Under the pieces are notes generated by a model, which saw only the letters and a list, made by a program, of their open reading frames with translations, ran no database searches and was not told the DNA's origin. The position numbers and the translations under genes were made by a program. Below, piece by piece: positions 24,436-41,471 of a stretch of DNA of 41,471 nucleotides (position 1 is the stretch's first letter; every line of letters starts with the position of its first letter). Source of the DNA: an uncultured bacterium (GTDB lineage Bacteria > SAR324 > NAC60-12); assembly GCA_964010765.1 (NCBI GenBank), contig CAXGMD010000020.1, forward strand, positions 1 to 41,471, in the 5' to 3' direction.

Positions 24436-24442
24436 TTAACAA

Positions 24443-25609: not shown

Positions 25610-26511
25610 TTTCCAATTGCTAATTCCGCTTTTATGGTTGGCAGAAGTGCTTTCATTGCCTCATAACCGGCCTGAATAGCAACATCTCTTTCTGCAAAGC
25701 TTAGAAAGTCTTTGGGCTCGAAATACGGCCTTAGTAACCAGTCCGCTTCTGCCAATTCACTCTTGTTGCCGCTACACATTTGCAGTCGAAAAGCCTGTGT
25801 AGTGGTCCAAAATGCATTTTCACTGATAGGATAACCTCTTCCACAAAAGGTATCGATAGCAAGCACTTTGTGGGCTCCAAGTGCCCTGGCAAATCGGACA
25901 GGGACGACAGAGAGCACTCCACCATCCACCCAGATTTCTTGATCAACTTTCACTGGAACAAAAGTACCCGGTATGCTTGATGATGCCTGCACAGCCTCCC
26001 CTGCTTTGCCCTCAACAACGAGAAGTAATTGACTGTCCACTAGTTCAGTGACTGCAACTCCTACCTTTTTTGGGAGTTCACTCAAAAGTTTGTTTCCCAA
26101 GATCTGGTTGATCCAGAAAGCCAGTTTTCTACCTTGAATCAAGCCTTTCAGGCTAAGAACCGGATCCGTAACATCCCACCTTTCAAGCTTGATCATTTCC
26201 TGCTGTATTTGCTGAAGAGGAAGCTCAGAGGCATACAAAACGGCAGCGATGGCACCAGCTGAGGTTCCGGTCACAATCTCTGCCTGAATCCCTGCTTCTT
26301 CTAGCGCCTGAATCACCCCAAGATGGACAAATCCCCGCACTCCACCACCACCAAAGGCGATTCCTAGTTTTACTGACTTGTTATCTTGGGGAGGATAAAT
26401 TTCCTGGATTTCTTCTAGGGTTTTCCCTTTGAGTGAGTCGTATCGATTATCTTGAACACACCCAGTCCAAAATAGCGCTAGACTCAAGAAAAGCAGGATG
26501 TTCAGTCGCAT
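25606..26511 (-). CDS. Patatin-like phospholipase, probable lipoprotein
   Basis: GGGGVRG, GTSAG, DGG motifs; lipobox-like FWTGC. Confidence 0.9.
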   Translation of the reverse strand: MRLNILLFLSLALFWTGCVQDNRYDSLKGKTLEEIQEIYPPQDNKSVKLGIAFGGGGVRGFVHLGVIQALEEAGIQAEIVTGTSAGAIAAVLYASELPLQQIQQEMIKLERWDVTDPVLSLKGLIQGRKLAFWINQILGNKLLSELPKKVGVAVTELVDSQLLLVVEGKAGEAVQASSSIPGTFVPVKVDQEIWVDGGVLSVVPVRFARALGAHKVLAIDTFCGRGYPISENAFWTTTQAFRLQMCSGNKSELAEADWLLRPYFEPKDFLSFAERDVAIQAGYEAMKALLPTIKAELAIGN

Positions 26512-26605
26512 GGAATCAATTGATGCTTGAATGTTGGAATTTACGAAACTAACTCAAGCAAGCTTATCAAGGAAGGAGGATGGAGAGAAGTTTTGGGTTT
26601 TTAAA

Positions 26606-27655
26606 TCAGATTCTTTCTCCGGTTTGATTCGAAAACAAGAAGCATTTGCTAGCTTCAAACTGTACCCCAACAGCTTCATCGATATTTATTTTGAATTCTT
26701 TAGGGCCTCGTATCGTTAGCCGATCTGGCCCAACGTTGATGGTGGTCAAAGTCGATTCACCTGTTAACTCATGGGCGTAAACTGTTCCCTGAAGAACTCC
26801 TTTTTGAGCAGCACACAAAATTAAATCTTCAGGACGAATTCCAAGAGTTGCTTCTTCCAGGTTTGCTTCGTGGTTGATAGAGATTGAAAAATTTGGATGC
26901 TGAAAGTTGTTATCGTGAAGTTTTCCTTTCATTAAATTCATTGGTGGAGATCCAATAAATCCTGCTACGAAAAGATTTGCAGGATCATTGTAGATTTCTT
27001 CAGGTGGTCCCAGCTGCGAAATGATTCCATGATCCATCACTGCTACACGATCCGCCAGAGTCATTGCTTCAATTTGATCGTGTGTTACATAAACAGTTGT
27101 GATCTTCAGTTCATGCTGCAAATGCTTCAGTTCCGCACGCATTGTCACACGAAGTTTGGCATCAAGATTCGAAAGAGGCTCATCCATCAGAAAAACTGTT
27201 GGAGTCCTGACTATTGCTCTGGCCAAGGCAACTCTTTGACGTTGACCTCCGGAAAGTTCTCTGGGCTTGCGTTCAAGCAAATGATCCAATTGAACTTTTT
27301 CAGCAGCTTGCCGCACTTTTTCTGAATGCAGAGACTTGGGAACTTTACGGACTTTCAGTGGGTAGCGAATATTTTCATAAACGGACAGATGTGGATACAA
27401 ACCGTAGTTCTGGAAGACCATTGCTACATCACGATCCTTTGGAAGGTCGTCATTGACTTTACGATCACCAATAAAAACCTCTCCAAGGGTTGGTTCTTCG
27501 AGGCCGGCAATCATTCTCATCGTGGTTGTTTTGCCACATCCTGAGGGCCCCAACAGCACCAAAAATTCCTGATCCTCAATCAATAGGCTCAGATCTCTGA
27601 CTGCAACAAATTCATTCCAGCGCTTCGTAATACCTTTTAAGGTCACAGATGCCAT
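26606..27655 (-). CDS. CUT1 sugar ABC transporter ATP-binding protein (MalK/UgpC-like)
   Basis: GPSGCGKT, VFQNY, LSGGQRQR, DEPLSNLDAKLR, VTHDQ, FIGSPPMN. Confidence 0.95.
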   Translation of the reverse strand: MASVTLKGITKRWNEFVAVRDLSLLIEDQEFLVLLGPSGCGKTTTMRMIAGLEEPTLGEVFIGDRKVNDDLPKDRDVAMVFQNYGLYPHLSVYENIRYPLKVRKVPKSLHSEKVRQAAEKVQLDHLLERKPRELSGGQRQRVALARAIVRTPTVFLMDEPLSNLDAKLRVTMRAELKHLQHELKITTVYVTHDQIEAMTLADRVAVMDHGIISQLGPPEEIYNDPANLFVAGFIGSPPMNLMKGKLHDNNFQHPNFSISINHEANLEEATLGIRPEDLILCAAQKGVLQGTVYAHELTGESTLTTINVGPDRLTIRGPKEFKINIDEAVGVQFEASKCFLFSNQTGERI

Positions 27656-27668
27656 CAGTAAGTCCTAC

Positions 27669-28496
27669 TTATCTCACTGCGCCAAGGGTCATACCTTGGA
27701 CAAAATGTTTCTGGATGATCATTGCCAACCCAAACATTGGCAGCATGATTAGAATGCCAGCCGCAGAAATGAGATGCCACAGGACGCCCTCCTCAGCGTG
27801 AAAAAGTGATAAGCCCACCGGCATCGTAACCGCCTTACTATTAGTAATGATCACAGCGAAAAGAAATTCATTCCAAGCCAGAATGAAACAGAAAATTGCT
27901 GCCGTTAAGATTCCAGGCAAAGCCATGGGCAAAACAATATTCCAAATCACCTGAAGTCGACTCGAACCATCAACTAGGGCAGCTTCCTCAGTATCCAAAG
28001 GGATGCCATCAATGAATCCTTTGATCATCCAAATAGCAAAGGGGAGGATCAACGACAAATTAACTAGGACTAAGGCAAGCCTTGTATCCAGCAAACCCAA
28101 ATCTCTAAACAGAAGAAAGTAGGGAAGCACAATCACGACAGCTGGTACAAACTGAGTAGATAAGATCATCAGGAACATCGTGCGCTCGAATCTCAGCCGA
28201 AATCTTGAGAAGCTGTAAGCTGCCATTGTTGCCATTGGAATGGCAACAATAACGGTTGTTCCGGCAACTAGTGTGGAGTTGAGAAGTTTTTCGTGGAGAT
28301 TGTATGGGGAACGGAAAATTTCGTTGAAGTTGGCAAGTGTTGGAGTGAAGAGAAGCTTGAGTTGGAAAACATCAACTTGTTGTTTGAAAGCCCCGGAGGC
28401 AATCCAATAAATTGGAACGAGGATAACTACCGCTGCGCAAAGAATTAGCGCAAATTGAAAAAGATCCGCTACTTGTTTTCTAATTGAGTTGCCCAT
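27669..28496 (-). CDS. Carbohydrate ABC transporter permease (MalG-like)
   Basis: Six TM helices; EAA loop EEAALVDG; AWNEFLFA. Confidence 0.93.
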   Translation of the reverse strand: MGNSIRKQVADLFQFALILCAAVVILVPIYWIASGAFKQQVDVFQLKLLFTPTLANFNEIFRSPYNLHEKLLNSTLVAGTTVIVAIPMATMAAYSFSRFRLRFERTMFLMILSTQFVPAVVIVLPYFLLFRDLGLLDTRLALVLVNLSLILPFAIWMIKGFIDGIPLDTEEAALVDGSSRLQVIWNIVLPMALPGILTAAIFCFILAWNEFLFAVIITNSKAVTMPVGLSLFHAEEGVLWHLISAAGILIMLPMFGLAMIIQKHFVQGMTLGAVR

Positions 28497-29401
28497 CAGC
28501 GTTTCAGGAAAACAAGTTTCATGTAAAGCCAGGTCAACCCTAGCATTGGAATCACCAAAAGATAGGAAACTGCTGAGGCATAGCCCATATCATAATACTT
28601 GAACCCGTGGAAATAGATGTAATGAGCCAGAGTTTGGGTGGCATTACCTGGCCCTCCATTAGTCAACATGTAGACCTGATCAAACATCTTCAGGGAGAAA
28701 ATACTCTTCAGAATAATCCCCACTGCCAGAACGGGTATCAGAGCTGGCAAAGTAACATCTACAAATACTCTCCAACTGGAAGCTCCATCAATCATTGCCG
28801 CTTCTTGTGCGTCCCGGGGCACGTTAGCCAACCCTCCTATGAATACAAGCGTCAAATAGGGTGTCCAATGCCAAACGTCACTACCAATAATTGCAATCAG
28901 AGCGAAGGTAGGGTCTCCAAGCCAATCCACATCTGCCAGACCCGGCACTACGGCACCAAAGACAGCCTGAAACAAGCCAAAATCAGGTTGGAACATGAAC
29001 CGCCAAGAAATTCCAATCAGCGCAGGACTCATGGCAAATGGAAGAATGAGCAGTGTCCTCACAGTCAATCTGAACTTGCCTCCTGGAGCAAGCAGAAGAG
29101 CCAACCCCAAAGCCAAACCGACAGACACAATTACTGAAGCGAACATAAAAGTGGTTGTGACCTGCACGGAATTCCAGAGTAGGTCATCTTCTAGGGCTCG
29201 CTGGTAATTCTCTAAGAGGTAGGGCCAGGTTTCCCAGCCATCAAATTCTGGTTCCCAGAGAGGTCTCGACTCACGAGCTCGACTGAGTTTCCATTCTCGA
29301 AAGCTGAGCCAGAATGATTGGAGCAACGGCCAAAAGGACGTAACCAACACCAACACCAATGCCGGTAAAACGAATAGGTATTTAAGGTGTCGGTCACGCA
29401 T
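28496..29401 (-). CDS. Carbohydrate ABC transporter permease (MalF/UgpA-like)
   Basis: WHWTPY, EAAMIDGAS, FDQVYMLTNGGPG, GYASA. Confidence 0.93.
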   Translation of the reverse strand: MRDRHLKYLFVLPALVLVLVTSFWPLLQSFWLSFREWKLSRARESRPLWEPEFDGWETWPYLLENYQRALEDDLLWNSVQVTTTFMFASVIVSVGLALGLALLLAPGGKFRLTVRTLLILPFAMSPALIGISWRFMFQPDFGLFQAVFGAVVPGLADVDWLGDPTFALIAIIGSDVWHWTPYLTLVFIGGLANVPRDAQEAAMIDGASSWRVFVDVTLPALIPVLAVGIILKSIFSLKMFDQVYMLTNGGPGNATQTLAHYIYFHGFKYYDMGYASAVSYLLVIPMLGLTWLYMKLVFLKR

Positions 29402-29413
29402 TTTCAGACCGAA

Positions 29414-30730
29414 TCAGTAACCAGCTCTTCGTAGAATACGTTCTGCTCGCTGGCCTGCTTCTGCCATCAATTCCTCGACATTACCCCCCGTGGAGGCTTT
29501 TTGAATCGCATTCGAAAGCAAGTCTCCAATTTCAGGCCATTCAGGGATCTGAGGCATGATGTCAGAATTCGCAAGACTCAGAGCGGCGGCTTGCTGAATG
29601 TTGTCATTCGCAGCATTTACCTCAGGATCTACAAGGCTCTGCTTGTGGGTAACGACATTGTTCACGATTGCCTCACCCGCGACCTCTCGTTCAATGGCAT
29701 TTCTTCGGTCAAGCTCTGGATTAGAGAGCCACTTCAAGAACTCCCAGCTTGCCTCCTGGTTCTTTGAATGCTTCGAAATACTGAAAGGCATGCTGATCGC
29801 GTAAGTTACCGTTTCCCCCTTGTAGGAAGGCATCCCTATGAAAGCAACCTGCTCCTTCGACAAAGTAGACTGATTGGGGTTGTAGAATCCACTATAAGCC
29901 CACCACCAAACTGGGATCATAGCTGCTTTCCCTTGCGAAAATTGGATCCTTGCATCCTGTTCCACATTCGAAACAGCACCCTCCCCACAGATATCGTCAG
30001 AGGTATGCATTTCGATGTAGTCTTTGGTTGCTTGAATCGCTGCTGCAGTTGTCCAAGCGGGTTTCATTTGACTGTCAAAAACATCTCCTCCTGCTGCCCA
30101 GAGGTAGTTCAGCCAAATAAACAGGTTTTGTCTGTTGCCATCAGCCCCATAGTAACAGGCGAGTCCCCCAATTCCCTCTTTCTCCTTGATCATTTTCCCT
30201 GCGCTGACGACGTCAGCCCAAGTCTTTGGCTCACTCAGTCCATGCTTATCGAACAGATCTTTGCGATAGAACATTAACTGGGGATGGGCACGCAATGGGA
30301 ACCCTAAGGTTTCTCCCTGAAACATTGCACTCTTTTTAAATGCTTCAGGATAGCGATCCATGCTTATGCCATCTTGCTTTAACCATCCATCGATTGGTTG
30401 AAGCCAATAAGCATTTGCAGGCCCCCAGGAATCTAAATAGTTCACCACATCAAAATTACCATCAGCAGCTACTCCGACACTTGCTACCTTCTCCTGAAGG
30501 GAGACGAATGGGATATGAGTCCAATTAACAGTAATGCCTGTCAGGCTTTCAAACTCTTCATCCCGCAACTCGTAGGCTTTAAACTGTGGAGTGACAACCG
30601 AAAGAATATTTAAATTTGTACCAGCGTAAGGTTTTCCAGATTTAAGACCATAAGGAAGAATATTTTCAGCCGCAAACACGCTTGAAGCCATTAAGGAGCC
30701 ACACAAGAGGGCACAAAAGGTTTTCCACAT
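29414..30730 (-). CDS. Sugar ABC transporter substrate-binding protein (family 1)
   Basis: Signal peptide from ATG 30730 with GGAG upstream; FYRKDLF, PKTW, FSQGKAAM, WEFLKWL motifs. Confidence 0.9.
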   Translation of the reverse strand: MWKTFCALLCGSLMASSVFAAENILPYGLKSGKPYAGTNLNILSVVTPQFKAYELRDEEFESLTGITVNWTHIPFVSLQEKVASVGVAADGNFDVVNYLDSWGPANAYWLQPIDGWLKQDGISMDRYPEAFKKSAMFQGETLGFPLRAHPQLMFYRKDLFDKHGLSEPKTWADVVSAGKMIKEKEGIGGLACYYGADGNRQNLFIWLNYLWAAGGDVFDSQMKPAWTTAAAIQATKDYIEMHTSDDICGEGAVSNVEQDARIQFSQGKAAMIPVWWWAYSGFYNPNQSTLSKEQVAFIGMPSYKGETVTYAISMPFSISKHSKNQEASWEFLKWLSNPELDRRNAIEREVAGEAIVNNVVTHKQSLVDPEVNAANDNIQQAAALSLANSDIMPQIPEWPEIGDLLSNAIQKASTGGNVEELMAEAGQRAERILRRAGY

Positions 30731-30764
30731 TTTCAACTCCAAAAATTTATGAAAACAAAAAATG

Positions 30765-30780
30765 ATGAATGCCTATGCAA
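30765..30780. promoter_or_regulatory. Degenerate second copy of putative LacI-family operator
   Basis: ATGAATGCCTATGCAA matches TTGCATAGCTATGCAA at 12 of 16 positions; lies ~35 nt upstream of the SBP start. Confidence 0.5.
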
Positions 30781-30877
30781 ACATGCACACTACTGCCAAT
30801 CTCCGGCTTGAAGGTCAAGCGATTTTTTCTGTGCTTGATTTTTGGGTTGATTAAGCTTTTATTCGTACAACTTAAAT

Positions 30878-30893
30878 TTGCATAGCTATGCAA
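30878..30893. promoter_or_regulatory. Putative operator of the local LacI-family regulator
   Basis: Perfect 16-bp palindrome TTGCATAGCTATGCAA, 30 nt upstream of the ATG at 30924, within the divergent control region. Confidence 0.7.
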
Positions 30894-30923
30894 GCAATTT
30901 AAATCTAAGTGTAGAGGATTACG

Positions 30924-32201
30924 ATGATTCAGTATCTGAAAGAAGGGAGAAGTGCAGCAGATGCGAAGGCTGATCAATCAAAAGTTCGCCAGACTGTAGA
31001 ACAGATCCTTGCAGAGATAGAGTTGCGCGGGGACGCTGCTGTTCGGGAACTGGCTCAGAAATTTGATGGATGGACTCTTCCAAACTTCCGACTTAGTCCA
31101 GATGAAATTCAAGCTGCTTTAGGGGAGGTACCTAAATCTACCTTAGATGATATTCGCTTTGCCCAGACACAGATTCGTAATTTTGCCCAGATTCAGCGCT
31201 CAGCTTTACAAGATGTAGAAGTCGAAACGCTCCCAGGCGTTATTCTTGGCCATAAAAACCTCCCGGTAAACAGCGTCGGCTGTTATGTGCCTGGTGGGAA
31301 ATATCCAATGGTGGCCTCGGCTCACATGAGCGTGGTCACAGCAAAAGTTGCGGGAGTTCCGAGAATTATTGCATGTGCACCACCCTTTGAGGGCCGCCCA
31401 CATCCAGCAATCATTGCTGCAATGCACCTCGGTGGAGCTGATGAAATTTATTGTCTTGGGGGAGTGCAGGCAGTGGGGTCCATGGCTTTGGGAACAGAAT
31501 CGATAAAAGCCGTTGATATGTTAGTGGGGCCTGGAAATGCCTTTGTGGCAGAAGCGAAGAGGCAACTTTATGGTAGAGTCGGCATCGATCTTTTCGCTGG
31601 TCCCACAGAAACACTCATCATTGTTGATGAAAGTTGTGATGGGGAGCTTTGTGCTGCGGACCTGCTTGGCCAAGCTGAGCATGGTCTAAACTCGCCAGCA
31701 ATCCTTCTCACCAATTCTGAGAAACTCGCCAGAGAGACCATGGAAGAAGTCGAACGACAGCTAAAGATTCTTCCAACTGGCGAAATTGCTGGACAAGCTT
31801 GGCGGGATTTTGGACAAGTAATTGTCTGTGAAAGTTACGATGAAATGGTCACTAAAGCCGATGAAATTGCTTCTGAACACGTTCAAGTGATGACAAGGGA
31901 TCCCAACTTTTTCTTGGAAAGGATGACCAACTACGGAGCTTTATTCCTTGGCAAGGAAACGAATGTCGCCTACGGAGATAAAGTTATCGGAACGAACCAC
32001 ACACTCCCAACAAACAAGGCAGCTCGTTACACTGGAGGATTGTGGGTTGGTAAATTCCTCAAGACCTGCACCTACCAGTGGGTGAAGACACCTGAAGCGA
32101 GTACTCTAATTGGTGAATACTGCTCGAGACTCTGTGCTCTTGAAAACTTTGCGGGCCATAAGGAACAAGCAGACATTCGTGTTCGGCGCTACAAGCAGTG
32201 A
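30924..32201 (+). CDS. hisD: Histidinol dehydrogenase-family protein, probably a non-biosynthetic paralog (HpsN-like)
   Basis: [43 protein letters not shown]. Has GDKVIG and [13 protein letters not shown] instead of the canonical HisD GDYxAG and YPSSVLM; catabolic gene context. Confidence 0.85.
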
Positions 32202-32223
32202 AACCAACTTTACGGCGTGATCT

Positions 32224-33285
32224 GTGGCTGAACGAAAAGTGAACGCAACCTCCACACAAGTGGCAAAATTAGCCGGGGTCTCTCAGTCAGCTGTTTCAAG
32301 AGCATTCACCCCTGGGGCAAGCATCGCCGAGAGTACCAGAAGAAAGGTTCTGCAGGCTGCCAGGAAGCTTGGCTATCAACCGAATGCGATCGCAAGAAGT
32401 CTAAGTACCAAGCGCTCTAAGATTATCGGGATCGTGATCGCTAATGTGACTACAAATCCCTTCTACCCGGAAGTCTTGGATGCCCTTAGTCGCCAATTCC
32501 AACAAAGGGGGCAACGAGTCATGCTCTTTGTTGTCACACGTGATCAAAACTTGGACGACATCCTCCCCCAACTTCTGGAATATCGTGTTGATGGAATTCT
32601 TCTCACAGCGGCAACACTCAGTTCCGCAATGGCTCATGAATGCGCACGCTTGGGTGTTCCAGTAACGTTGTTCAATCGTTCTGTTCCAGATGCCCATGCA
32701 AGCTCTTTTTGTTGCGACAATATTGAGGGGGGCCGAATGGCCGCAAGGCTTTTAATGAAATCTGGACATCATCAAGTAGCTTTCGTAGCAGGGAGTCATG
32801 ACACATCCACAAGTCTTGAGCGGGAAAGAGGATTCAGAGAAGAATTGAAAAAACATGGACTGGAACCCTATATCGAAATGGGGAATTTCAGCTATCATGG
32901 TGCATTTGACGCAGCTAGAAGATTAATGAACCTTCCAAAATCACCTGACGCAGTTTTTTGCGCTAATGACATCATGGCAATCGGGGTTTTGGATGCGCTT
33001 TGCCATGCCGAGCAGAAAAGAGTGCCTGAAGATGTATCCGTTATTGGTTTTGATGATATTCCAATGGCCGCCTGGCCCAGCTACAATCTAACTACCATTC
33101 GGCAACCCATTGAAAGAATGATCGATTCCGCAGTCAATGATCTTCTTGATCGCATAAACCAAGACAACATGGCCCCAAAGCAAGAGTTAGTTGCTGGAGA
33201 TTTAGTTGTCCGTTCTTCAGCAAAGTTACCCTCAGGACTTTCATCTGGTTGGGTAATTTCAACTTCTGAAACCAGAAATGTCTGA
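32224..33285 (+). CDS. LacI-family transcriptional regulator
   Basis: HTH VAKLAGVSQSAVSRAF, LGYQPNAIARSL, NPFY, FCANDIMAIG, VIGFDDI, LTTIRQP. Confidence 0.95.
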   Translation: MAERKVNATSTQVAKLAGVSQSAVSRAFTPGASIAESTRRKVLQAARKLGYQPNAIARSLSTKRSKIIGIVIANVTTNPFYPEVLDALSRQFQQRGQRVMLFVVTRDQNLDDILPQLLEYRVDGILLTAATLSSAMAHECARLGVPVTLFNRSVPDAHASSFCCDNIEGGRMAARLLMKSGHHQVAFVAGSHDTSTSLERERGFREELKKHGLEPYIEMGNFSYHGAFDAARRLMNLPKSPDAVFCANDIMAIGVLDALCHAEQKRVPEDVSVIGFDDIPMAAWPSYNLTTIRQPIERMIDSAVNDLLDRINQDNMAPKQELVAGDLVVRSSAKLPSGLSSGWVISTSETRNV

Positions 33286-34207
33286 GCATTCAACAATGAA
33301 ACTCATTGACGCTCACCACCATCTCTGGGAACCACAGGCGTTGCCTTATGGGTGGCTGCGCCAGCTTGGCCAACCAAAGCCATTCGGCGATCCCACGGCG
33401 ATTCAACGAAATTATCTTCCTAAAGATTACCTCGACGATGCTGGACAAGCTGAAGACGTTGAGTTGATTTCGACCGTGCATGTTCAGGCGGATGGAGCGC
33501 TGCCAGATCCGGTAGCTGAAACTCTTTGGTTGGAGAGCCTCAAATCCACTATCCCTTCCGCAATTGTTGGATTCGCTGACTTGGCAAGTCCTGATTTACC
33601 CAAAGTTTTGGAAGGACATGCCCAATCTCCTCGATTCCGTGGTGTTCGTCAAATCATCGGAAAACTGGCTGACCGCCCGGATCTTTCTTTCACCTTAGAC
33701 GATCTACTTGAAAAATCTGCCTGGCAAAATGGGTTTTCCCTTTTGAAGGAATTTAATCTGAGTTTCGATCTGCAACTCTATCCTGAACAAATGGAAGGTG
33801 CTGCTCAGTTTTTGGGAAAGCATCCGGAAACAAAAGTCGTGATCGATCATGCCGGTTGTCCTTATGACCAAACTGATCAAGGTCTTGAACTTTGGGGAGT
33901 TGGTGTAGAACAGCTTTCTCAACTCGAGAACGTGCATGTCAAACTTTCAGGCTTTGGGATGTATACCAAGGATTGGGATGCTGAAAATACAGAAAGAATT
34001 TTTCAAAAGTTATATCAAACTTTTGGAGCAGGGCGCTTGATGTGGGGGAGCAACTTTCCTGTTGATCGACTGATGCAGAGTTATGGACATTGTGTAAAGC
34101 AACTTCAGACTTGGTTAGCTTCCCTTTCTAAAGATGAGCAAGATGATATAGCTTGGCGCTCAGCTGCGAAGTTTTATCGTCTGGACATAGGCAAGTCTCA
34201 TGGCTGA
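33278..34207 (+). CDS. Amidohydrolase_2 family protein (COG3618, sugar-lactonase-like)
   Basis: IDAHHHLW, FRGVRQ, SFDLQ, IDHAG, VKLSG, MWGSNFPVD. Confidence 0.85.
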   Translation: MSEHSTMKLIDAHHHLWEPQALPYGWLRQLGQPKPFGDPTAIQRNYLPKDYLDDAGQAEDVELISTVHVQADGALPDPVAETLWLESLKSTIPSAIVGFADLASPDLPKVLEGHAQSPRFRGVRQIIGKLADRPDLSFTLDDLLEKSAWQNGFSLLKEFNLSFDLQLYPEQMEGAAQFLGKHPETKVVIDHAGCPYDQTDQGLELWGVGVEQLSQLENVHVKLSGFGMYTKDWDAENTERIFQKLYQTFGAGRLMWGSNFPVDRLMQSYGHCVKQLQTWLASLSKDEQDDIAWRSAAKFYRLDIGKSHG

Positions 34208-35252
34208 TCTTGAACTACGAAAAATTTGGAAGCGCTGGGGTGATTTTGTTGCTGTCAGGGATTTTGAGCTGGAGATCTCTGACCGGGAATTCTTGGTCCT
34301 GCTAGGACCTTCAGGTTGTGGCAAAACGACCACAATGAGGATGATCGCTGGGTTAGAAGATCCGACTTCGGGGGAAATTTTCATCGGTGGGAGAAGGGTC
34401 AACGACTTGGAGCCCAAGGATCGGGATGTGTCGATGGTCTTCCAGAACTACGGTTTGTATCCAAATCTGAATGTCTACGACAACATCTGTTTTCCGCTCA
34501 AGGTCAGAAAAGTTCGGAAGGCAGAGCAGGATCAGCGTGTTCGAAAGGCTGCCGGCATGGTCGAACTCAACGACTTGCTGGACCGACGCCCTGCCGAACT
34601 ATCTGGGGGTCAAAGACAACGGGTTGCTCTGGCTCGAGCCATTGTTCGGGAACCCAATGTCTTTCTGATGGACGAACCACTCTCCAATCTGGATGCGAAG
34701 CTGAGGATCTCGACTCGGGCTCAGATCAAAAACCTCCAATATGAGCTACAGGTCACCACGGTTTACGTAACTCACGACCAAACAGAAGCAATGACTCTCG
34801 CTGACCGAGTTGTTGTGATGAATCACGGAGAAATTCAACAAGTTGGGTCTCCCTTGGAGATTTACGATCGGCCCCAAAATGTTTTTGTTGCAGGTTTCAT
34901 TGGAAGCCCTCCGATGAACCTGATCGAGGGGAGCATTCAGGAAGGCCAATTCGTTTGTGAACTGAACAAAGGTTTTCCGCTATCGGGACCTGAAGGCCCG
35001 ATAACGCTTGGTTTTCGTGCAGAGGACGCCGAAATCATCTCGGAAGGTGGTCAATTGAAGGGGCTTGTATACGCAATGGAATTGCTGGGCGATGCCACCC
35101 TGATCACCTTGCGAACCGGGGGCAGCTTGGTGTGTGTCAAGATGCCGAAAGATTTTCGAGCCACGATGGGACAGGAACTGCCGGTCTTTTTAAAACCAGC
35201 TGCCTGCCATCTTTTTGAGAAGGATTCAGGACACCGTCTGAATAAATCCTGA
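34200..35252 (+). CDS. CUT1 sugar ABC transporter ATP-binding protein (second copy)
   Basis: GPSGCGKT, LSGGQRQR, DEPLSNLDAKLR, VTHDQ, FIGSPPMN. Confidence 0.95.
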   Translation: MADLELRKIWKRWGDFVAVRDFELEISDREFLVLLGPSGCGKTTTMRMIAGLEDPTSGEIFIGGRRVNDLEPKDRDVSMVFQNYGLYPNLNVYDNICFPLKVRKVRKAEQDQRVRKAAGMVELNDLLDRRPAELSGGQRQRVALARAIVREPNVFLMDEPLSNLDAKLRISTRAQIKNLQYELQVTTVYVTHDQTEAMTLADRVVVMNHGEIQQVGSPLEIYDRPQNVFVAGFIGSPPMNLIEGSIQEGQFVCELNKGFPLSGPEGPITLGFRAEDAEIISEGGQLKGLVYAMELLGDATLITLRTGGSLVCVKMPKDFRATMGQELPVFLKPAACHLFEKDSGHRLNKS

Positions 35253-35283
35253 ATCCAACAATTTTTTTCCTACGAGAGGAACC

Positions 35284-36501
35284 ATGATGAAAAAATTCCT
35301 GACGATCGCGGTCACCCTGTCAGCCTTCGTGGCTGTTCCAATGATAGGCTTCGCCGCCTGTGATTTTAAACCTTCCAGTAAGGTGAGTTTACTGGCAAAC
35401 AGTTTTGCTGCCTGGAAAGCCGTCTCTGATGCAATGAGCGAATGTGGAAATTTTGAAGCAGAATTAGATGCAGAGTTTAGGAAAAAACAGCCGGATGCAT
35501 TTGCTGCAAATCCTTCACTTTACCAACTTGGTGGGGTTTCCAATGGAACGATTCAACCTCTACTGTCTGCTGGCACCATTCGGCCACTTAATGATCTGGT
35601 AGCCAAGTATGGTAAAGATCTTCAACCCAATCAGTTGATTCGTATCAATGGACAAATCATGGCGATCGCTATGATGGTGAACAATCAACACTTGATGTAC
35701 CGAGAGGATATCTTCAAATCTTTGGGATTGGAGGTGCCAACTACTTACTTTGAGTTGCTTTCAGCAGCGGACAAAGTAGCTGCTTCGGGAAAAGTTCAAT
35801 ATGCTTTGGGCGGAACCTACAAAGCCGGATGGAACTTAGCTGAGGAGTTCGTGAATATGTACATGGGTATGGGAGGCGATTTTTTTGATGGATCCAAACC
35901 ATCTATAAATAACGTAATGGGTATCCGCACACTTGAAATGATGCGTAATCTAACCCACTACATGGATCCAGAGTACCTTGTTGCAGATTCCACTTATGTT
36001 CAGCAGCAGTTCCAACAGGGTAAAATTGCAATGGCAGTTTTGTGGGCTACGAGGGCCGCAGCAATGGATGATGCCAAGGAAAGCCAGGTTGTAGGAAAAG
36101 TTAAGATGGCTGCCGCACCATCCCCTGTATCGGGAGCGCTGCCTGCCTCAACACTCTGGTGGGATGGAGTTGTGCTTGCCAAGAATATGACAGACCAGCA
36201 AGCGGATGAGGCCTTTCAGCTATTGATGGAAGGAATCGACCGTGAAATGGTCACTAATAACAACGATGCTGCTGTCTGGTTGATCAATGGCTATAAACCT
36301 GGCCCCATGGCAATGGGGGCCGCTGAAACAGCTGAAAACGGTGCCTTACCTTATCCAAATGGAGTTGAAATGGGTTTGATGCACACCGCTCTCGGAAATA
36401 ACGTTGCAGATTTCCTTAAAGGCAAAGAGACAGCTGAGCAAACGCTTTTGGACATTGAGGCAGAATACACAACCGCAGCCAAAGAAAAAGGATTGCTCTA
36501 A
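35284..36501 (+). CDS. Sugar ABC transporter substrate-binding protein
   Basis: RBS GAGGA; signal peptide; LMYREDIF, PTTY, FQQGKIAM; position within an ABC cassette. Confidence 0.88.
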   Translation: MMKKFLTIAVTLSAFVAVPMIGFAACDFKPSSKVSLLANSFAAWKAVSDAMSECGNFEAELDAEFRKKQPDAFAANPSLYQLGGVSNGTIQPLLSAGTIRPLNDLVAKYGKDLQPNQLIRINGQIMAIAMMVNNQHLMYREDIFKSLGLEVPTTYFELLSAADKVAASGKVQYALGGTYKAGWNLAEEFVNMYMGMGGDFFDGSKPSINNVMGIRTLEMMRNLTHYMDPEYLVADSTYVQQQFQQGKIAMAVLWATRAAAMDDAKESQVVGKVKMAAAPSPVSGALPASTLWWDGVVLAKNMTDQQADEAFQLLMEGIDREMVTNNNDAAVWLINGYKPGPMAMGAAETAENGALPYPNGVEMGLMHTALGNNVADFLKGKETAEQTLLDIEAEYTTAAKEKGLL

Positions 36502-36516
36502 AGCAAGTTCGATCCT

Positions 36517-37545
36517 ATGAAGCATCGGACTTTTATTGGATTTATTGGCCCATCTTTGTTTTTAATGGCCCTGTTTATTGCAGGGCCATTATTCAGTGTT
36601 TTCTGGCAGAGTCTTCATGTCACTCAACCAATCTATATTCAGGTGGAGACTGAAGTTTGTACTCCCGGTTTCCTATCCCAAAAGTGTACAACTGAAATTC
36701 AAACTCAACCTCAAATGGGGCCTGATGGCAAGATCATCACAGAAACTAAATTTGCTGGTTTTGAAAGTTATCGATCTTTACTCAAACCGGAATTATTTTT
36801 AAAACACTTCTCGCAACAGGAATGGTCTGAATTAAATAATATCAATTTTTACAAGGCACTACGCTTCACACTCACATTCACCTTGATAACACTCCCCATC
36901 GTCCTAATTCTGGGATTGCTCATCGCCCTGAGTGTCAACCAAGCTTTGCAATCACTTCGAGGGCCAATCATCTTCATTTCGTTACTTCCTTTTGTGATTA
37001 CACCCGTTATTGGCGCTCTATCCATTCGTTGGCTTTTTGTTGGAGACGGTATTCTTACCACTTTATTTGAGTGGTTATTGGAAAGAGACATATCCATGTT
37101 CGCGCAGGGTTGGACCATTGAAATTTTGATGTTGGGCTATCGGGTTTGGCACGTTGCACCATTTGCCTTCATTGTATTTTATGCCGGTCTTCAAACGGTT
37201 AGTCGTGATACTCTTGAAAGTGCCATTGTCGATGGAGCGACCCGCTGGCAAAGGCTAAGGCTGGTGATTTTACCTCACCTAAGTCCGCTGATACTCTTTG
37301 TAAGCATTATCCATCTAATGGATTCCTACCGGGTTTTCGAAGAGGTTATTGGTTTCCGCAGTGAAGCCCACGTTATCTCACTCCAGTGGCTCACCTACGA
37401 TCTACTAATTCCAGATGACACGGGCAACCGTCTAATCAGCAGAGCTTCTGCCTCCTCGATGCTGACCATGATTGGCATAATTCTTCTGTTGATCTTCCCG
37501 TTGCGCCGAAGTTGGCGTGAGCATAAGCTGCTTAAAAGGGGTTAA
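36517..37545 (+). CDS. Carbohydrate ABC transporter permease (MalF-like) with extended periplasmic loop
   Basis: WHVAPF, ESAIVDGA, DSYRVF; Cys-containing insert after TM1. Confidence 0.88.
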   Translation: MKHRTFIGFIGPSLFLMALFIAGPLFSVFWQSLHVTQPIYIQVETEVCTPGFLSQKCTTEIQTQPQMGPDGKIITETKFAGFESYRSLLKPELFLKHFSQQEWSELNNINFYKALRFTLTFTLITLPIVLILGLLIALSVNQALQSLRGPIIFISLLPFVITPVIGALSIRWLFVGDGILTTLFEWLLERDISMFAQGWTIEILMLGYRVWHVAPFAFIVFYAGLQTVSRDTLESAIVDGATRWQRLRLVILPHLSPLILFVSIIHLMDSYRVFEEVIGFRSEAHVISLQWLTYDLLIPDDTGNRLISRASASSMLTMIGIILLLIFPLRRSWREHKLLKRG

Positions 37546-37546
37546 G

Positions 37547-38695
37547 ATGCAAATGAACATCGAACACCCTAAAAGCATCCAACTTTCAAAATCCCTCAAG
37601 ATACTCAGCAACGGATTTCTGGGCATTTGGTGTCTGATCGCGGTTTTTCCGCTGCTCTGGATTACGTTGATGAGCCTGAAGTATCCTCTTGATGCTTTCT
37701 CAGCCAATCCGCTGGTGGTGATTTTTGGCCCAGGAACACTATCCGCTGGTGCTTCAATCAACTTATTCGATTTGCTGTTGGTAATTCTTTGGGTGGTGGT
37801 GGCATCTCTGGGAATAAAACGCTGGCAGGCAGAAAAAAATCTGGGATCCAAAAATTGGTTGTACCTTGTTATCTCAATCGGATGGCTTTTTGCTGCTGTT
37901 GTCTTTACTGAGCTTAGTGTTGCTTTGAAGGAGCTGCTGGGAGCCGACTTTTTCTTAATGACTCCCTTGTTGGGGATGACCACTGAGCATTTCCAATCAG
38001 TTTGGATCGAACAGGAATTCTACAGACAATTCTTGAATTCACTGCTTGTAACTACCGGAGTCGTCAGCATTTCGCTGACAGTGGGAACATTGGCGGGCTA
38101 TGGATTGGCTCGCTCTGGTTCAAACTGGGCATTCTGGATTCTCATGACTGCCCTGGTTTTCCGGGCTCTACCACACTCTGTGCTGGTTTCTGGCTACCTC
38201 CCATGGTTCATCAATTCAGCCGAATGGCTACGACCTATTTTTGGCGAAGCCGCACCGACCTTATATGGCCAACCTTGGGCGATCATTGTGGTTCTCGCAT
38301 CGATCAACCAGCCTTTCACAATCTGGATGCTCCGTTCATTCTTTCAGAACATCCCAAGGGAATTGGATGAAGCGGCGCGTATTGATGGCTGTTCGCATGG
38401 AGAAGCCTTTGTGCGAGTGATAATTCCAGTCATGTGGCCGGGAGTCCTGACAGCAGGACTTTTCAGTTTTTTACTGGCTTACAACGACTACTTGGTTGCG
38501 GCTCTGTTGCTGGATGCCCAAAACCAGACGATGGTTCCCGCGATTTCTGGATACTTCAATCGTGAAACAACCTCGACAGACCAGGTGGAAGCCGTCGCTG
38601 CAGCAGTATCGATTACCGCACCACTTTTTGTTTTGGTAATGGTCTTTCAAAAGCAACTCGTTTCTGGCCTGACTCAAGGGGCCGTCAAGGGTTGA
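37547..38695 (+). CDS. Carbohydrate ABC transporter permease (MalG-like) with hydrophobic insertion
   Basis: FLNSLLVT, IWMLRSFFQNIPRELDEAARIDG, LAYNDY, GLTQGAVKG; ATG 37547 preferred. Confidence 0.88.
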   Translation: MQMNIEHPKSIQLSKSLKILSNGFLGIWCLIAVFPLLWITLMSLKYPLDAFSANPLVVIFGPGTLSAGASINLFDLLLVILWVVVASLGIKRWQAEKNLGSKNWLYLVISIGWLFAAVVFTELSVALKELLGADFFLMTPLLGMTTEHFQSVWIEQEFYRQFLNSLLVTTGVVSISLTVGTLAGYGLARSGSNWAFWILMTALVFRALPHSVLVSGYLPWFINSAEWLRPIFGEAAPTLYGQPWAIIVVLASINQPFTIWMLRSFFQNIPRELDEAARIDGCSHGEAFVRVIIPVMWPGVLTAGLFSFLLAYNDYLVAALLLDAQNQTMVPAISGYFNRETTSTDQVEAVAAAVSITAPLFVLVMVFQKQLVSGLTQGAVKG

Positions 38696-38723
38696 AGAAA
38701 ATCTTCAGTGTCAGGATTATCCA

Positions 38724-39230
38724 GTGGAAGAAAACGATAACAAGCAACTAATCGCAGATATGTATGGAGCCATGAACAAGAATGTACTTGGCCTGATGAA
38801 GAAATATTGGTTTGAAGACATGGTTTGGGAAGGGCCCGCTGGAGTGGGTACCAAACATGGATTGCAAGAGTTTGAAGAAGACTACCGTCGAGATTTCATC
38901 AATGCCTTCCCAGACAAGCATGCTACGGATTTGGTGCGTGTTGCTGAGGGGGATTGGGTAGCTGGAGCTGGTCATCAAGACACTACTTTTGCCAATTCAT
39001 GGCTGGGTATTCCACCGACCGGCCAGAAGATTCGCATTCGCTATATGGATTTTTGGAGGATTGCCAAAGATGAGTCAACTGGAGAAAGAAAACTCGCTGA
39101 AAATCTTGTGTTGATCGATATTTTGGGGGTCCTCGAACAAGCTGGTTATGATGTTGAAAAAGTCCTTAAGTTCGTTGGCTCTAAATCCCCTCAATTTTTT
39201 TTGAACCCTCCAGAATCAGATAATGAATGA
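38724..39230 (+). CDS. SnoaL-like / ester cyclase family protein (single domain)
   Basis: WEGPAG, AFPD, AEGDWV, WLGIPPTG, DFWR, EN.VLID..GVLEQ.G; GTG start. Confidence 0.8.
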   Translation: MEENDNKQLIADMYGAMNKNVLGLMKKYWFEDMVWEGPAGVGTKHGLQEFEEDYRRDFINAFPDKHATDLVRVAEGDWVAGAGHQDTTFANSWLGIPPTGQKIRIRYMDFWRIAKDESTGERKLAENLVLIDILGVLEQAGYDVEKVLKFVGSKSPQFFLNPPESDNE

Positions 39231-40279
39231 GCATATTTAAATTCAATAGTGAGCTAAATCAGCAGCATAAACAGTTAGTTTGGGACTATTGGCATAACGC
39301 AGCCTGGCAAAATCCTGCGGACATTCAAAAGCATCTGCTGCAATACCAGAATCAGGATGCCAATTGGTTTGGTTTTTCGCCGTTCAACCAATTGTCTTCA
39401 CCAACTGCACAGGTTGATGAATTTTGGCTTCCGCTCTACAAGGCGTTCTCGGATCTTCAGCGGCAGACCCATATCTTTATCGGGGGCAGTTCCAGTGGCA
39501 AAGCCGATGGCAGTCCAGATAATCGTTACTGGGTGGGAGGAACTGGGCTTTTCAAGGGGGTGTTTCAACAAGATTGGCAAATCAGTCACTTAAGAATTCC
39601 TGCCAACCAGCAACCTATCCAGATCCGTTGGGCAGAATTCTGTCGATTTGAAGAAGCAAGGATTGTTGAGACTTACCTGATGCTCGATCTCGTTGATTTC
39701 TTTGAACAGATCGGGCATCCCATTCTGCCACCCTGTAGGGGAGTGCCAGGAATTTACCCAGTACCGATTACTCAAGATGGGGTGCTGAGAGACATGCAGG
39801 AACAAGCTGTTACCGAGGCGAGTCTTCAATTGATTCGAGATTTCCTGTTTGAGGGCCTGAACCTTTATGATCAACATAACCTCAAAAGTATGGGGGTTGC
39901 GGACTTTTTTCATCAGGATGTCAAATGGTACGGTCCCGGAGGAATTGGCGGTTGTCTCAGTCTGAAAGCTTTTGAGGATAACCATCAAAAACCTTGGCTG
40001 ATTGCTTTTCCAGACCGCAAAGTTTGTGACTTGGATTCGCTCTTTGCTGAAGGAAACTACGTTGCTAGTTCTGGTTGGAAGGGGGTAATAGCCAAACATA
40101 CTGGGCCATACCTTGGACATCCTGCAAGTGACAAGGATATCTGCTTCAACGGTATCGATTTCTGGAGAAGCGAATCCGGGAAGTACGTCGAAAACTGGGT
40201 CTTTGTAGACATGATCCATCTGTTTGGACAGATGGGAATTGATCTATTAAAACGCTTGAATTTTGAGGGAGAGCGCTGA
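39227..40279 (+). CDS. SnoaL-like / ester cyclase family protein (two domains)
   Basis: N-domain AFSDL...IPA...F.RFEE.RIVE...D; C-domain WYGPGGIG, AFPD, AEGNYV, HTGPYLG.PAS, DFWR, ENWVFVD. Confidence 0.8.
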   Translation: MSIFKFNSELNQQHKQLVWDYWHNAAWQNPADIQKHLLQYQNQDANWFGFSPFNQLSSPTAQVDEFWLPLYKAFSDLQRQTHIFIGGSSSGKADGSPDNRYWVGGTGLFKGVFQQDWQISHLRIPANQQPIQIRWAEFCRFEEARIVETYLMLDLVDFFEQIGHPILPPCRGVPGIYPVPITQDGVLRDMQEQAVTEASLQLIRDFLFEGLNLYDQHNLKSMGVADFFHQDVKWYGPGGIGGCLSLKAFEDNHQKPWLIAFPDRKVCDLDSLFAEGNYVASSGWKGVIAKHTGPYLGHPASDKDICFNGIDFWRSESGKYVENWVFVDMIHLFGQMGIDLLKRLNFEGER

Positions 40280-41247
40280 TGTCAGCACCAGAATTGGAAT
40301 TTGCTGATCTGACAGATTTTATTCTGAGGATCACCGAGAGAATTTGGGAAGAGAGGCACGTTGAAGACATCCGCAAATACTACACTGCGGATTGTCGGGT
40401 AGAGACACCAGCAGGGGTTACTTCGAATGTGGAAGCAGTCATTCAATCCACTTTGGAAACGTTGAATCAGTTTCCTGACCGTCAACTGCTGGGTGAAGAT
40501 GTAATCTGGTCCGAAGACCAACCTGAATATTTCTACTCTTCTCATCGAATCTTCTCCACCATGACTCACCTTGGCGAGGGGAACTTTGGCAAAGGTACCG
40601 GAGCAAAAATTGGTGTTAGGACGATTGCTGACTGTGCTGTCTACAAAAATCAGATTTACGATGAATGGCTTGTTAGAGATCATGCAGCAATCCTGAGCGA
40701 TATAGGTCTGCCACTACAAGAAGTTGCGCTTTCACTGGCGGAAGCAAGAGCTGAATCTGGGCAGAAACCTATTCACTTCCATAGTCTTGAGAATCGACCA
40801 AAAGTTGACGGAATAAACTTGTCAGACACAGATGCTGCTCAGCATTATCTCCGAGGTTACAGAAGCTTGTTTGATGAATACGCCTTCGGCTGGGTTAAAG
40901 AGAGCTATGACAGGGCTGCACAAATTTATGCTCCAGGGGGGATAAATCTTCAGGGCTGGGACAGGATAACCGATTTCTGGTTGGGACTCAGAGCCAGTTT
41001 AGGTCAAGTAAAGTTTACAGCCGACCACTTGATTCATCGTGAGGATCCAAGAGAGCCTCAGCGGCTCGCCCTGCGCTGGACTGTAACCGGACAGCATGAA
41101 GGAAGAGGCCGATATGGAGAACCACGAGGCAACCCACTTCATTTTTTGGGTATCAGTCACGCAGAATTACGCAAAGGAAAGATTTTACGCGAATGGGTTT
41201 TGCTGGATGAACTGGCAATTTGGCAGCAAATTTTTTCTAAATTTTGA
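40279..41247 (+). CDS. SnoaL-like / NTF2-fold protein (two domains)
   Basis: IWEER, FPDRQLLGEDVIW, THLGEGNFGKGTG, DEWLVRD; second domain RWTVTGQHEG.G.YG.P.G...REW.LLDE. Confidence 0.78.
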   Translation: MSAPELEFADLTDFILRITERIWEERHVEDIRKYYTADCRVETPAGVTSNVEAVIQSTLETLNQFPDRQLLGEDVIWSEDQPEYFYSSHRIFSTMTHLGEGNFGKGTGAKIGVRTIADCAVYKNQIYDEWLVRDHAAILSDIGLPLQEVALSLAEARAESGQKPIHFHSLENRPKVDGINLSDTDAAQHYLRGYRSLFDEYAFGWVKESYDRAAQIYAPGGINLQGWDRITDFWLGLRASLGQVKFTADHLIHREDPREPQRLALRWTVTGQHEGRGRYGEPRGNPLHFLGISHAELRKGKILREWVLLDELAIWQQIFSKF

Positions 41248-41280
41248 GTTGGTCAATTTACTTTCGGACAGGAATTTCTG

Positions 41281-41471
41281 ATGGATATTGTTCGCTTCAA
41301 TGAACTGATCCCCTGTCGCACCGCCTTCATCGATGCGCACACCCCAGGTTCGGATCAGAAAGAAAATTACACCATCATTGGCGCAGGGGTCTCAGAATCA
41401 CCTGATCAGCACGTTCATCTCAGTAAAACTCCCGGTTTCAATATTGGGGCAGCCGCACAACCTGCAGGGTG
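41281..41471 (+). CDS. Probable cupin-domain protein (3' truncated by window)
   Basis: Not in the supplied ORF track. Hand translation MDIVRFNELIPCRTAFIDAHTPGSDQKENYTIIGAGVSESPDQHVHLSKTPGFNIGAAAQPAG is open to the window end; AGGA upstream. The cupin call is from recalled similarity; the metal motif lies beyond the window. Confidence 0.6.
   Translation, partial: MDIVRFNELIPCRTAFIDAHTPGSDQKENYTIIGAGVSESPDQHVHLSKTPGFNIGAAAQPAG

Follow-up and report, generated by a model that had tools for sequence, protein, structure and literature searches.

The stretch of DNA examined in this work, referred to here as the window, is the entire 41,471-bp contig C20 of an uncultured SAR324 bacterium whose genome (266 contigs, 3.86 Mb) is 92% complete. 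It carries a gene block that brings together a LacI-family regulator, two sugar-type ATP-binding cassette (ABC) importers and a conserved set of enzymes. This block is a real, conserved catabolic cassette and is neither the pathway for 2,3-dihydroxypropane-1-sulfonate (DHPS) nor a textbook sugar pathway. The genes present point to oxidation of an alcohol to an acid, to demethylation and to both metal-dependent and aldol cleavage. From the sequence we consider it probable that the cassette takes up a compound that is small, polar and not sulfonated, which it likely breaks down to central metabolites. The original prediction for this DNA had proposed a dedicated, regulator-linked uptake-and-catabolism system for a sugar-like, possibly sulfonated compound. 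This interpretation is supported in part, as the gene set and its co-conservation bear out the dedicated system whereas the sulfonate hint fails and the sugar-like nature of the compound is doubtful. The enzyme combination had also been said to match no described pathway, and a full-text literature search, with supplements and subscription journals outside its scope, returned no paper describing the gene set.

The genes of the cassette were found to be co-conserved far above chance. Contigs representing one genome per species were scanned with the tandem SnoaL protein of the window (Sno2), where 239 of the 249 pattern-matched stretches were confirmed as relatives and 80 loci were kept. All open reading frames (ORFs) of 79 kept loci (L002-L081) were clustered together with those of the window's tail. 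Counted by source, the Sno2-type family was the most recurrent (76), followed by a short-chain dehydrogenase/reductase (SDR; 31), the Sno3-type family (30), bicupins and MetE-like proteins (28 each), single SnoaL proteins and LacI regulators (27 each), HpsN-like dehydrogenases (23), SSF symporters (20), PcaD-like alpha/beta hydrolases (19), HpcH aldolases (17), Amidohydro_2 enzymes and the second solute-binding protein, SBP2 (15 each), TonB receptors (12) and S9 esterases (10). The least common of the recurrent families were the RraA-like proteins and sulfatases (7 each) and the SMP-30 lactonases (6).

Partner genes were also counted with family hidden Markov models (HMMs), with thresholds placed by us where the ranked scores showed gaps, in 32 non-SAR324 loci of at least 18 kb which had been found by the tandem SnoaL protein alone. 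The MetE-like family occurs in 20 of these long loci, the bicupin in 19, the SDR in 16 and the HpsN-like dehydrogenase and LacI regulator in 15 each, and 24 of the 32 carry at least two of these five partner families, so the genes are indeed conserved together elsewhere. An HpcH or RraA aldolase is present in 14 long loci and an SBP2 or SSF transporter in 21; the single-SnoaL (sno1) family was observed in 22, the Sno3 family in 21, SBP2 orthologues in 9 and sulfatase genes in 7. Four to six NTF2 genes per locus are found in 21 of the 32. Carriers of the cassette include SAR324, Woeseiaceae, SAR92, Saprospiraceae, sponge- and sediment-type Chloroflexota, Actinomycetota, roseobacters, Vibrio, rhizobia and a haloarchaeon. 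The gene order is shuffled between these phyla, which argues for selection on the gene set and not for common descent of the block.

Within the SAR324 phylum, 26 of 88 genomes contain an HpsN-like match with an E value of 1e-120 or lower, among them all eight others of the window's genus. With the HpsN-like gene as an independent anchor, ten SAR324 loci were fetched and seven of these carry SnoaL genes. Two distant carriers illustrate how the set varies. Ruegeria sp. THAF33 holds the full set together with an S-adenosylmethionine (SAM) methyltransferase, an alpha/beta hydrolase and an RraA protein, and its dehydrogenase is annotated as 'hisD'. In Halobellus limi (plasmid NZ_CP031313.1, 134-153 kb), five 'ester cyclases', the MetE-like gene, the HpcH aldolase and an ABC importer are retained alongside an NAD(P) oxidoreductase with an aldehyde dehydrogenase. 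This locus further encodes two VOC proteins, an IclR regulator and a protein of the GcvT family. Neither an HpsN-like nor a bicupin gene was found at the Halobellus locus, where the dehydrogenase pair stands in for the former and the VOC proteins for the latter. We read this variant as non-orthologous replacement, and the pattern supports alcohol-to-acid, metal-dependent cleavage and methyl-transfer steps.

The first gene of the rightward operon (30924-32201, forward strand) encodes an HpsN-like member of the histidinol dehydrogenase family (PF00815, 461.8 bits), a predicted four-electron alcohol-to-acid dehydrogenase. It had been assigned as HisD/HpsN-like and is nearer to the DHPS dehydrogenase HpsN than to HisD, since the solved HpsN structures 8v35 and 8wwe scored 404.6 and 392.9 bits whereas the best HisD scored 273.1 bits. 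A canonical hisD is located elsewhere in the genome on contig C1. In addition, a third HisD-family paralog on contig C16 (38952-40184; PF00815, 429 bits) has a divergent substrate loop and is neither canonical HisD nor HpsN-like. Excerpts of a published study of HpsN (PMC11382572) give its signature as G-R-Y-A/S-H, where His126 binds the sulfonate together with Lys353, and name Glu318, His319 and Asp352 as required for catalysis. Equivalents of the three catalytic residues and of Lys353 are kept in the window protein, where the SEH and GDK motifs can be aligned, and both motifs are shared by 23 orthologues. However, the signature position reads G-K-Y-P-M, with methionine replacing His126. The signature histidine is likewise missing from 23 of 23 cluster orthologues, 22 of which read G-K/R-Y/F-P-M/L while the locus L031 reads G-L-Y-P-L, and 11 of 11 further orthologues, Ruegeria included, read G-K-Y/F-P-M. 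Lone HpsN-like genes of the G-K-Y-P-M type were also noticed at L099 (10207-11493) and L100 (9971-11299), one beside an MFS transporter and the other beside a 3-hydroxyacyl-CoA dehydrogenase-like gene.

These residues bear directly on the proposal that the operon degrades DHPS or another organosulfonate, with the HisD paralog acting as a true HpsN that makes sulfolactate. The best solved relatives and the retained Lys353 and catalytic Glu, His and Asp are consistent with such a function, as are the sulfatase genes in 7 of the 32 long loci. In the DHPS pathway hpsO adjoins hpsN, which is paralleled by the SDR gene often found beside the HpsN-like gene. The G-R-Y-A/S-H signature with His126 is nevertheless missing in the window protein and in each of the 34 orthologues that were compared. 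General ORF annotation, with no search aimed at CuyA, showed neither SuyAB nor Xsc nor CuyA in the operon, and the best Xsc match in the 92%-complete genome reached 302.7 bits against a cut-off of 676.4. A gene of SuyB-like fold lies on contig C2 and is unlinked to the cassette. As both the sulfonate-binding histidine and a linked desulfonation gene are missing, a sulfonate pathway is very unlikely, and the suggestion of a sulfonated substrate made in the original prediction is not upheld. The gene on C2 (19511-19882) belongs to a 397-residue ORF with an altronate-dehydratase/SuyB-type domain (PF04295) and is found about 2 kb from another LacI-family gene.

The rightward operon had been described as running off the window, and the downstream sequence was retrieved from contig C39 of the same genome, on which the operon continues. 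Contig C39 carries a MetE-like gene (26-1147) and an SDR gene (1172-1930) which are 95% and 97% identical to those of SAR324 locus L004. When the final 60 bases of the window and the opening 60 of C39 are placed on L004, they fall within its bicupin gene at a distance of 718 bp, and the rightward operon therefore comprises 13 genes. In SAR324 relatives the corresponding region consists of a 307-residue bicupin, a 373-residue MetE-like protein (PF01717) and a 252-residue SDR, followed by unrelated CHAD and ParA genes. The last ORF of the window, which had been noted as cupin-like, is confirmed as a cupin and can now be recognised as the start of this bicupin. It spans the first 63 codons and is open-ended at the contig end (41281-41471, forward strand; 63-residue ORF at 41281-41469), and it is 97-100% identical to the starts of the 307-residue bicupins in loci L004, L006 and L007. 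Residues H69, H71 and E75 of the bicupin were found to be invariant in 17 sequences, and its fold resembles MncA, oxalate decarboxylase and quercetin dioxygenases. In the MetE-like family, the His-x-Cys and Asp-Cys-Gly zinc motifs (HICWGN and DCG) are conserved in 28 sequences, matching the His-x-Cys ... Glu ... Cys zinc site of the catalytic-domain family of cobalamin-independent methionine synthase (MetE). This family scores 42.9 bits against PF01717 and 76.3 bits against the best NCBIfam methionine synthase model, for which the cut-off is 406. A paper on the cobalamin-dependent MtgBCD (PMC12478193) has no bearing on the MetE-like gene.

Three genes upstream of the bicupin encode SnoaL-type proteins, and PF07366 was found above its cut-off in all of them. 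The array of three genes and their family had been correctly recognised; the two long proteins are now seen to be tandem NTF2 proteins and therefore the window encodes five NTF2 domains. The first gene (sno1, 38724-39230, forward strand) is a single-domain SnoaL/NTF2 protein (55.4 bits). Sno2 (39227-40279, forward strand) matches PF07366 in its C-terminal half, and its structure model (predicted local distance difference test score of 93.7) consists of two NTF2 cones, while Sno3 (40279-41247, forward strand) matches PF07366 in both halves. Polar residues D154, H253, Q254, D263, D311, E322, N323 and D328 of Sno2 were observed to be invariant or nearly so among 109 sequences. The nearest folds to Sno2 are Lsd19 and MonBI-MonBII, which are tandem with low template-modelling (TM) scores, followed by the SnoaL-type single domains AclR, SnoaL2 and ChaU. 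A further tandem NTF2 gene of the Sno2 type, which scores 439 bits against the family HMM, was noticed on the 3.9-kb contig C178 (L095, 243-2278), where it adjoins a PhyH-type dioxygenase.

The SnoaL family is named after polyketide cyclases, the nearest folds (such as Lsd19, MonB, AclR and SnoaL2) are biosynthetic, and in public records the proteins carry the label 'ester cyclase'. These likenesses could be taken to mean that the block is a biosynthetic or tailoring cluster in which SnoaL-type cyclases act on a polyketide-like product. Polyketide cyclases of this type act beside polyketide synthase (PKS) genes, but no PKS, nonribosomal peptide synthetase or other scaffold-forming gene was found among the scanned ORFs of the window or the annotated recurrent families of the related loci. 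The cassette is always accompanied by importers dependent on solute-binding proteins, SSF symporters or TonB receptors, and it includes a LacI-type regulator and pyruvate-forming aldolases. We therefore regard a biosynthetic role as extremely unlikely.

The amidohydrolase gene (33278-34207, forward strand) encodes a lactonase-like Amidohydro_2 hydrolase (PF04909, 111.1 bits). It scores 114 bits against the NCBIfam model for L-fucono-1,5-lactonase, which is below the cut-off of 400 bits. Its only solved relatives at E 0.001 or better are 4dlf (the best, 71 bits), which we take to be L-fucono-1,5-lactonase, and 6uvz. Similarly, the SDR of the cassette is nearest to glucose 1-dehydrogenase models and the HpcH aldolase is nearest to HpaI/GarL. 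Together with the CUT1-type importers and the LacI regulator, these relationships would fit an ordinary non-phosphorylative sugar or polyol pathway built from a dehydrogenase, a lactonase and an aldolase, to which mutarotase-like accessory proteins have been added. SMP-30 lactonases in 6 of 74 non-SAR324 loci and L-fucose-isomerase-like genes in 4 of 81 clustered sources point in the same direction. However, no glycoside hydrolase, kinase or known sugar-acid dehydratase was observed among the annotated recurrent families, where a bicupin, a MetE-like Zn enzyme, a PcaD-like hydrolase and HpcH/RraA aldolases recur instead. NCBIfam equivalog scores are all far under their cut-offs, and a sugar pathway leaves the numerous NTF2 genes, the MetE-like enzyme and the bicupin unexplained. 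We consider such a pathway unlikely, and the description of the compound as sugar-like is correspondingly doubtful.

The same enzyme classes can also be compared with the breakdown of methoxylated aromatics. Steps such as O-demethylation, side-chain alcohol oxidation, ring cleavage, hydrolysis and aldol cleavage are used by the syringate and protocatechuate 4,5-cleavage routes of Sphingobium, and a lignin-type phenylpropanoid might be degraded in this manner. Each class has a counterpart in the wider cassette, namely the SDR, the Amidohydro_2 enzyme (LigI/LigJ class) and the RraA-like (LigK class) and HpcH aldolases; a PcaD-like alpha/beta hydrolase and a metal dioxygenase fold are present as well. 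Furthermore, the Halobellus variant contributes its IclR regulator, two VOC proteins and GcvT-family protein, a class which includes LigM. Against this proposal, aromatic acids are not usually served by LacI regulators or by CUT1 or SSF importers, and open-ocean lineages are among the carriers. Neither LigAB nor PcaGH nor a ring-hydroxylating oxygenase was seen among the annotated recurrent families, and the amidohydrolase's solved relatives at the E value given above do not include LigI. An aromatic substrate thus appears improbable.

Both importers consist of the CUT1 set of an SBP_bac_1 solute-binding protein, two BPD_transp_1 permeases and a MalK/UgpC-type ATPase with a TOBE domain. The rightward importer, on the forward strand, is made up of the ATPase (34200-35252), identified by Pfam and NCBIfam, SBP2 (35284-36501; SBP_bac_1, 66.9 bits) and two permeases (36517-37545 and 37517-38695), the second with an uncertain GTG start. 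The leftward importer, on the reverse strand, comprises the ATPase (26606-27655; Pfam ABC_tran, OB_MalK and TOBE_2, with 440.5 bits to the NCBIfam UgpC subfamily), a MalG/UgpE-like permease (27669-28496), a MalF/UgpA-like permease (28496-29401) and the solute-binding protein SBP1 (29414-30742; SBP_bac_1, 131.9 bits). The two ATPases are 59% identical, and SBP1 and SBP2 share 28% identity over 144 residues. The best solved relative of SBP1 is 5iai, a 'sugar ABC transporter' (103 bits), while SBP2 matches 5iai at 66 bits and SmoF at 48 bits; these relatives are too weak to point to a ligand for either protein.

The importers had been described as twins serving one system. This holds for SBP2, which travels with the cassette across phyla, while the link of SBP1 to the cassette was seen in SAR324 only, in two arrangements. 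One is the divergent layout of the window, and the other is found in another SAR324 genus (L097), where an SBP1-type importer, 79% identical, sits between the bicupin and RraA-like genes. The idea that the leftward operon is unrelated to the cassette, which arose from its lack of linkage outside SAR324, was dropped because the SBP1-type importer is embedded in the L097 cassette.

The LacI-family regulator is encoded within the rightward operon (32224-33285, forward strand) and has an N-terminal LacI helix-turn-helix domain (PF00356) followed by an effector domain resembling periplasmic binding proteins (Peripla_BP_3/1; PF13377/PF00532). It scores below the cut-off for all NCBIfam equivalogs. 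The two operons diverge from a control region of 193 bp (30731-30923), the sequence of which was inspected; its left boundary follows from an ATG start of SBP1 at 30730, which is likelier than the TTG at 30742. A perfect 14-bp palindrome, TGCATAGCTATGCA, found by eye and followed up with a pattern search, occupies positions 30879-30892, 32 bp before the start of the HpsN-like gene, and is a candidate LacI operator. It is the sole perfect copy in the 3.86-Mb genome. Four genome copies were found with at most one half-site mismatch, and only the one in the control region lies outside a long ORF. The same palindrome occurs at the same distance in SAR324 loci L004-L007, and related palindromic sites were observed in L044 and L073, including an Anaerolineales locus where the site lies between the bicupin and LacI genes. 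The LacI protein is predicted to bind the palindrome at 30879-30892. A weaker second site, TGAATGCCTATGCA, with three mismatches, is located at 30766-30779, about 24 bp from the TTG start of SBP1. An inverted-repeat search of the control region returned nothing, and a consensus promoter and terminator scan of 26300-41471 gave fewer sites than shuffled sequences, none of them useful in the control region.

With regard to expression, four runs are labelled as metatranscriptomes; at a level of 95% or above, three of them cover all 30 bins and the fourth covers 29. In one RNA-library run (X17), a base is missing at 30763, just before the weaker palindrome-like site, which represents a strain difference in the control region. 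Near-identical DNA for 30700-40690 (0.95-0.96 of sampled words) was also found in 13 runs from 7 studies, one of which is labelled a hot-springs metagenome, an odd source for marine SAR324.

Taken as a catabolic cassette for a small, polar, non-sulfonated compound, the genes can be arranged into the following putative route. The LacI protein would bind its palindrome and, as long as neither the substrate nor a product is bound to the regulator, keep the rightward operon repressed. Uptake of one compound, or of two related ones, would rely on SBP2 together with the permeases and ATPase of its importer and, within SAR324, on the SBP1 system as well. The HpsN-like Zn/NAD+ enzyme is predicted to oxidise a -CH(OH)/C(OH)-CH2OH group as far as the carboxylate, with NAD+ required in each of two steps, using Lys353 and no sulfonate-binding histidine. 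The five NTF2 domains may carry out hydrolytic, isomerising or retro-aldol steps on related substrates, and the MetE-like enzyme, in which the His-x-Cys / Cys zinc site is kept, could pass an alkyl group, probably a methyl, on to a thiol. The bicupin, with its His-His-Glu site, would perform a metal-dependent cleavage or isomerisation while the Amidohydro_2 enzyme would open a lactone or ester. Pyruvate could finally be released by HpcH or RraA-like aldolases, which are encoded in cis in most other lineages and would be supplied from elsewhere in the window's genome.

As to the identity of the compound, a tentative possibility is that the cassette serves the bacterial catabolism of mycosporine-like amino acids, 4-deoxygadusol and gadusol, the sunscreens of algae and cyanobacteria; the chemistry is reasoned here from the structures of these compounds. 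The NTF2 paralogues would then hydrolyse the differing amino-acid imine and enaminone substituents, the MetE-like enzyme would pass the ring O-methyl group to a thiol and the HpsN-like enzyme would turn C(OH)-CH2OH into C(OH)-COOH. The resulting reductone ring might be split by the bicupin, with the lactonase/esterase and the RraA/HpcH aldolases giving pyruvate and oxaloacetate.

Several observations weigh against the putative catabolic route for a small, polar, non-sulfonated compound. The structure matches of the tandem NTF2 and bicupin folds are generic and do not narrow down the chemistry. No RraA or HpcH gene was found among the window proteins, and the SAR324 operon itself is without an aldolase or alpha/beta hydrolase; the nearest relatives lie on contigs C51, C28 and C56, where no operator site is present. 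As only the control-region site among the four in the regulon scan is perfect and outside a long ORF, these unlinked relatives are not tied to the regulator. Sites such as 30766-30779 before the leftward operon are not above chance (3 found, 1.54 expected), so the leftward operon is at most a possible target of the LacI protein. One RNA-library contig (29268-31252) bridges the divergent promoter, and the contigs give neither strand nor level; DNA carry-over is therefore possible and the RNA libraries are not counted as proof of transcription. In five of the 32 long loci the tandem NTF2 gene occurs with none of the five partners. Of the ten SAR324 loci anchored on the HpsN-like gene, two lack any cassette gene within roughly 10 kb and another carries LacI, SDR and HpcH genes only.

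The ORFs reported earlier and their coordinates, including the overlaps at 33278/33285, 34200/34207, 39227/39230 and 40279 and the control region, agree with those recomputed here, and each protein family that had been named is backed by Pfam and NCBIfam assignments. Upstream of the leftward operon (23116-26511) are genes for the epoxyqueuosine reductase QueG (356.9 bits), a family-2 glycosyltransferase and a patatin-like phospholipase, which are apparently unrelated to the cassette. Elsewhere in the genome, a region of contig C51 (L091, 1082-8191) combines the genes of a polyol-type ABC importer with those for an SDR, a mannitol dehydrogenase and one single SnoaL protein. On the same contig (17890-19479), another SDR adjoins the genome's best RraA relative of the cassette family.

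The wide distribution of the pathway suggests that its substrate is common among dissolved organic compounds, with a turnover that has yet to be accounted for. Several of the carriers are cultured, with Ruegeria sp. THAF33, Ruegeria conchae, Phaeobacter piscinae, Vibrio pelagius, Granulosicoccus sp. 3-233, Porticoccaceae nBUS_09, SAR92 H231 and Halobellus limi as candidate strains, so the question of the substrate is directly testable. The dehydrogenase is labelled hisD in public records, and it could be miscounted as hpsN in surveys of DHPS cycling despite the missing sulfonate-binding residue.

Among the closest known systems is HpsN of Cupriavidus pinatubonensis (8v35; 8wwe), with which the window dehydrogenase shares the fold, a full-length alignment, the catalytic residues and Lys353, and an SDR gene that is often adjacent. 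The two differ in that the window protein has no equivalent of His126, no sulfolyase gene is linked to it and it is instead accompanied by NTF2 proteins, a bicupin and a MetE-like enzyme. The likeness to HisD (4g07, 1k75) consists of PF00815 and TIGR00069 scores above their cut-offs. In HisD, however, the loop reads G-S-A-P-L where the window protein has G-G-K-Y-P-M, and the window gene is part of a catabolic operon and is not the sole copy. The non-phosphorylative lactone pathways for L-fucose and L-rhamnose share an Amidohydro_2 lactonase-like enzyme, an SDR and, in other lineages, an HpcH aldolase with the cassette. They are set apart by the amidohydrolase score (114 against 400 bits) and by the lack of a dehydratase in the cassette, which adds NTF2, bicupin, MetE-like and HpsN-like genes.

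In the protocatechuate 4,5-cleavage/syringate pathway, LigI, LigJ, LigK and methyl-ester hydrolysis represent enzyme classes that recur in the wider cassette, where a candidate for demethylation is included. Orthologues of PDC lactonase, OMA hydratase and CHA aldolase were not found together in one cluster, the regulator and transporter types differ, and the NTF2 array and HpsN-like enzyme have no counterpart in that pathway. Lastly, Lsd19 and MonBI-MonBII (3rga, 4rzm and 9kw6) resemble Sno2 in having two NTF2 cones in one chain or complex and are its best Foldseek matches, over about 340 columns. Identities are 10-12% with TM scores of 0.3-0.4 and the domains are packed differently, and the context of Sno2 is catabolic whereas that of Lsd19 and MonBI-MonBII is polyether biosynthesis.

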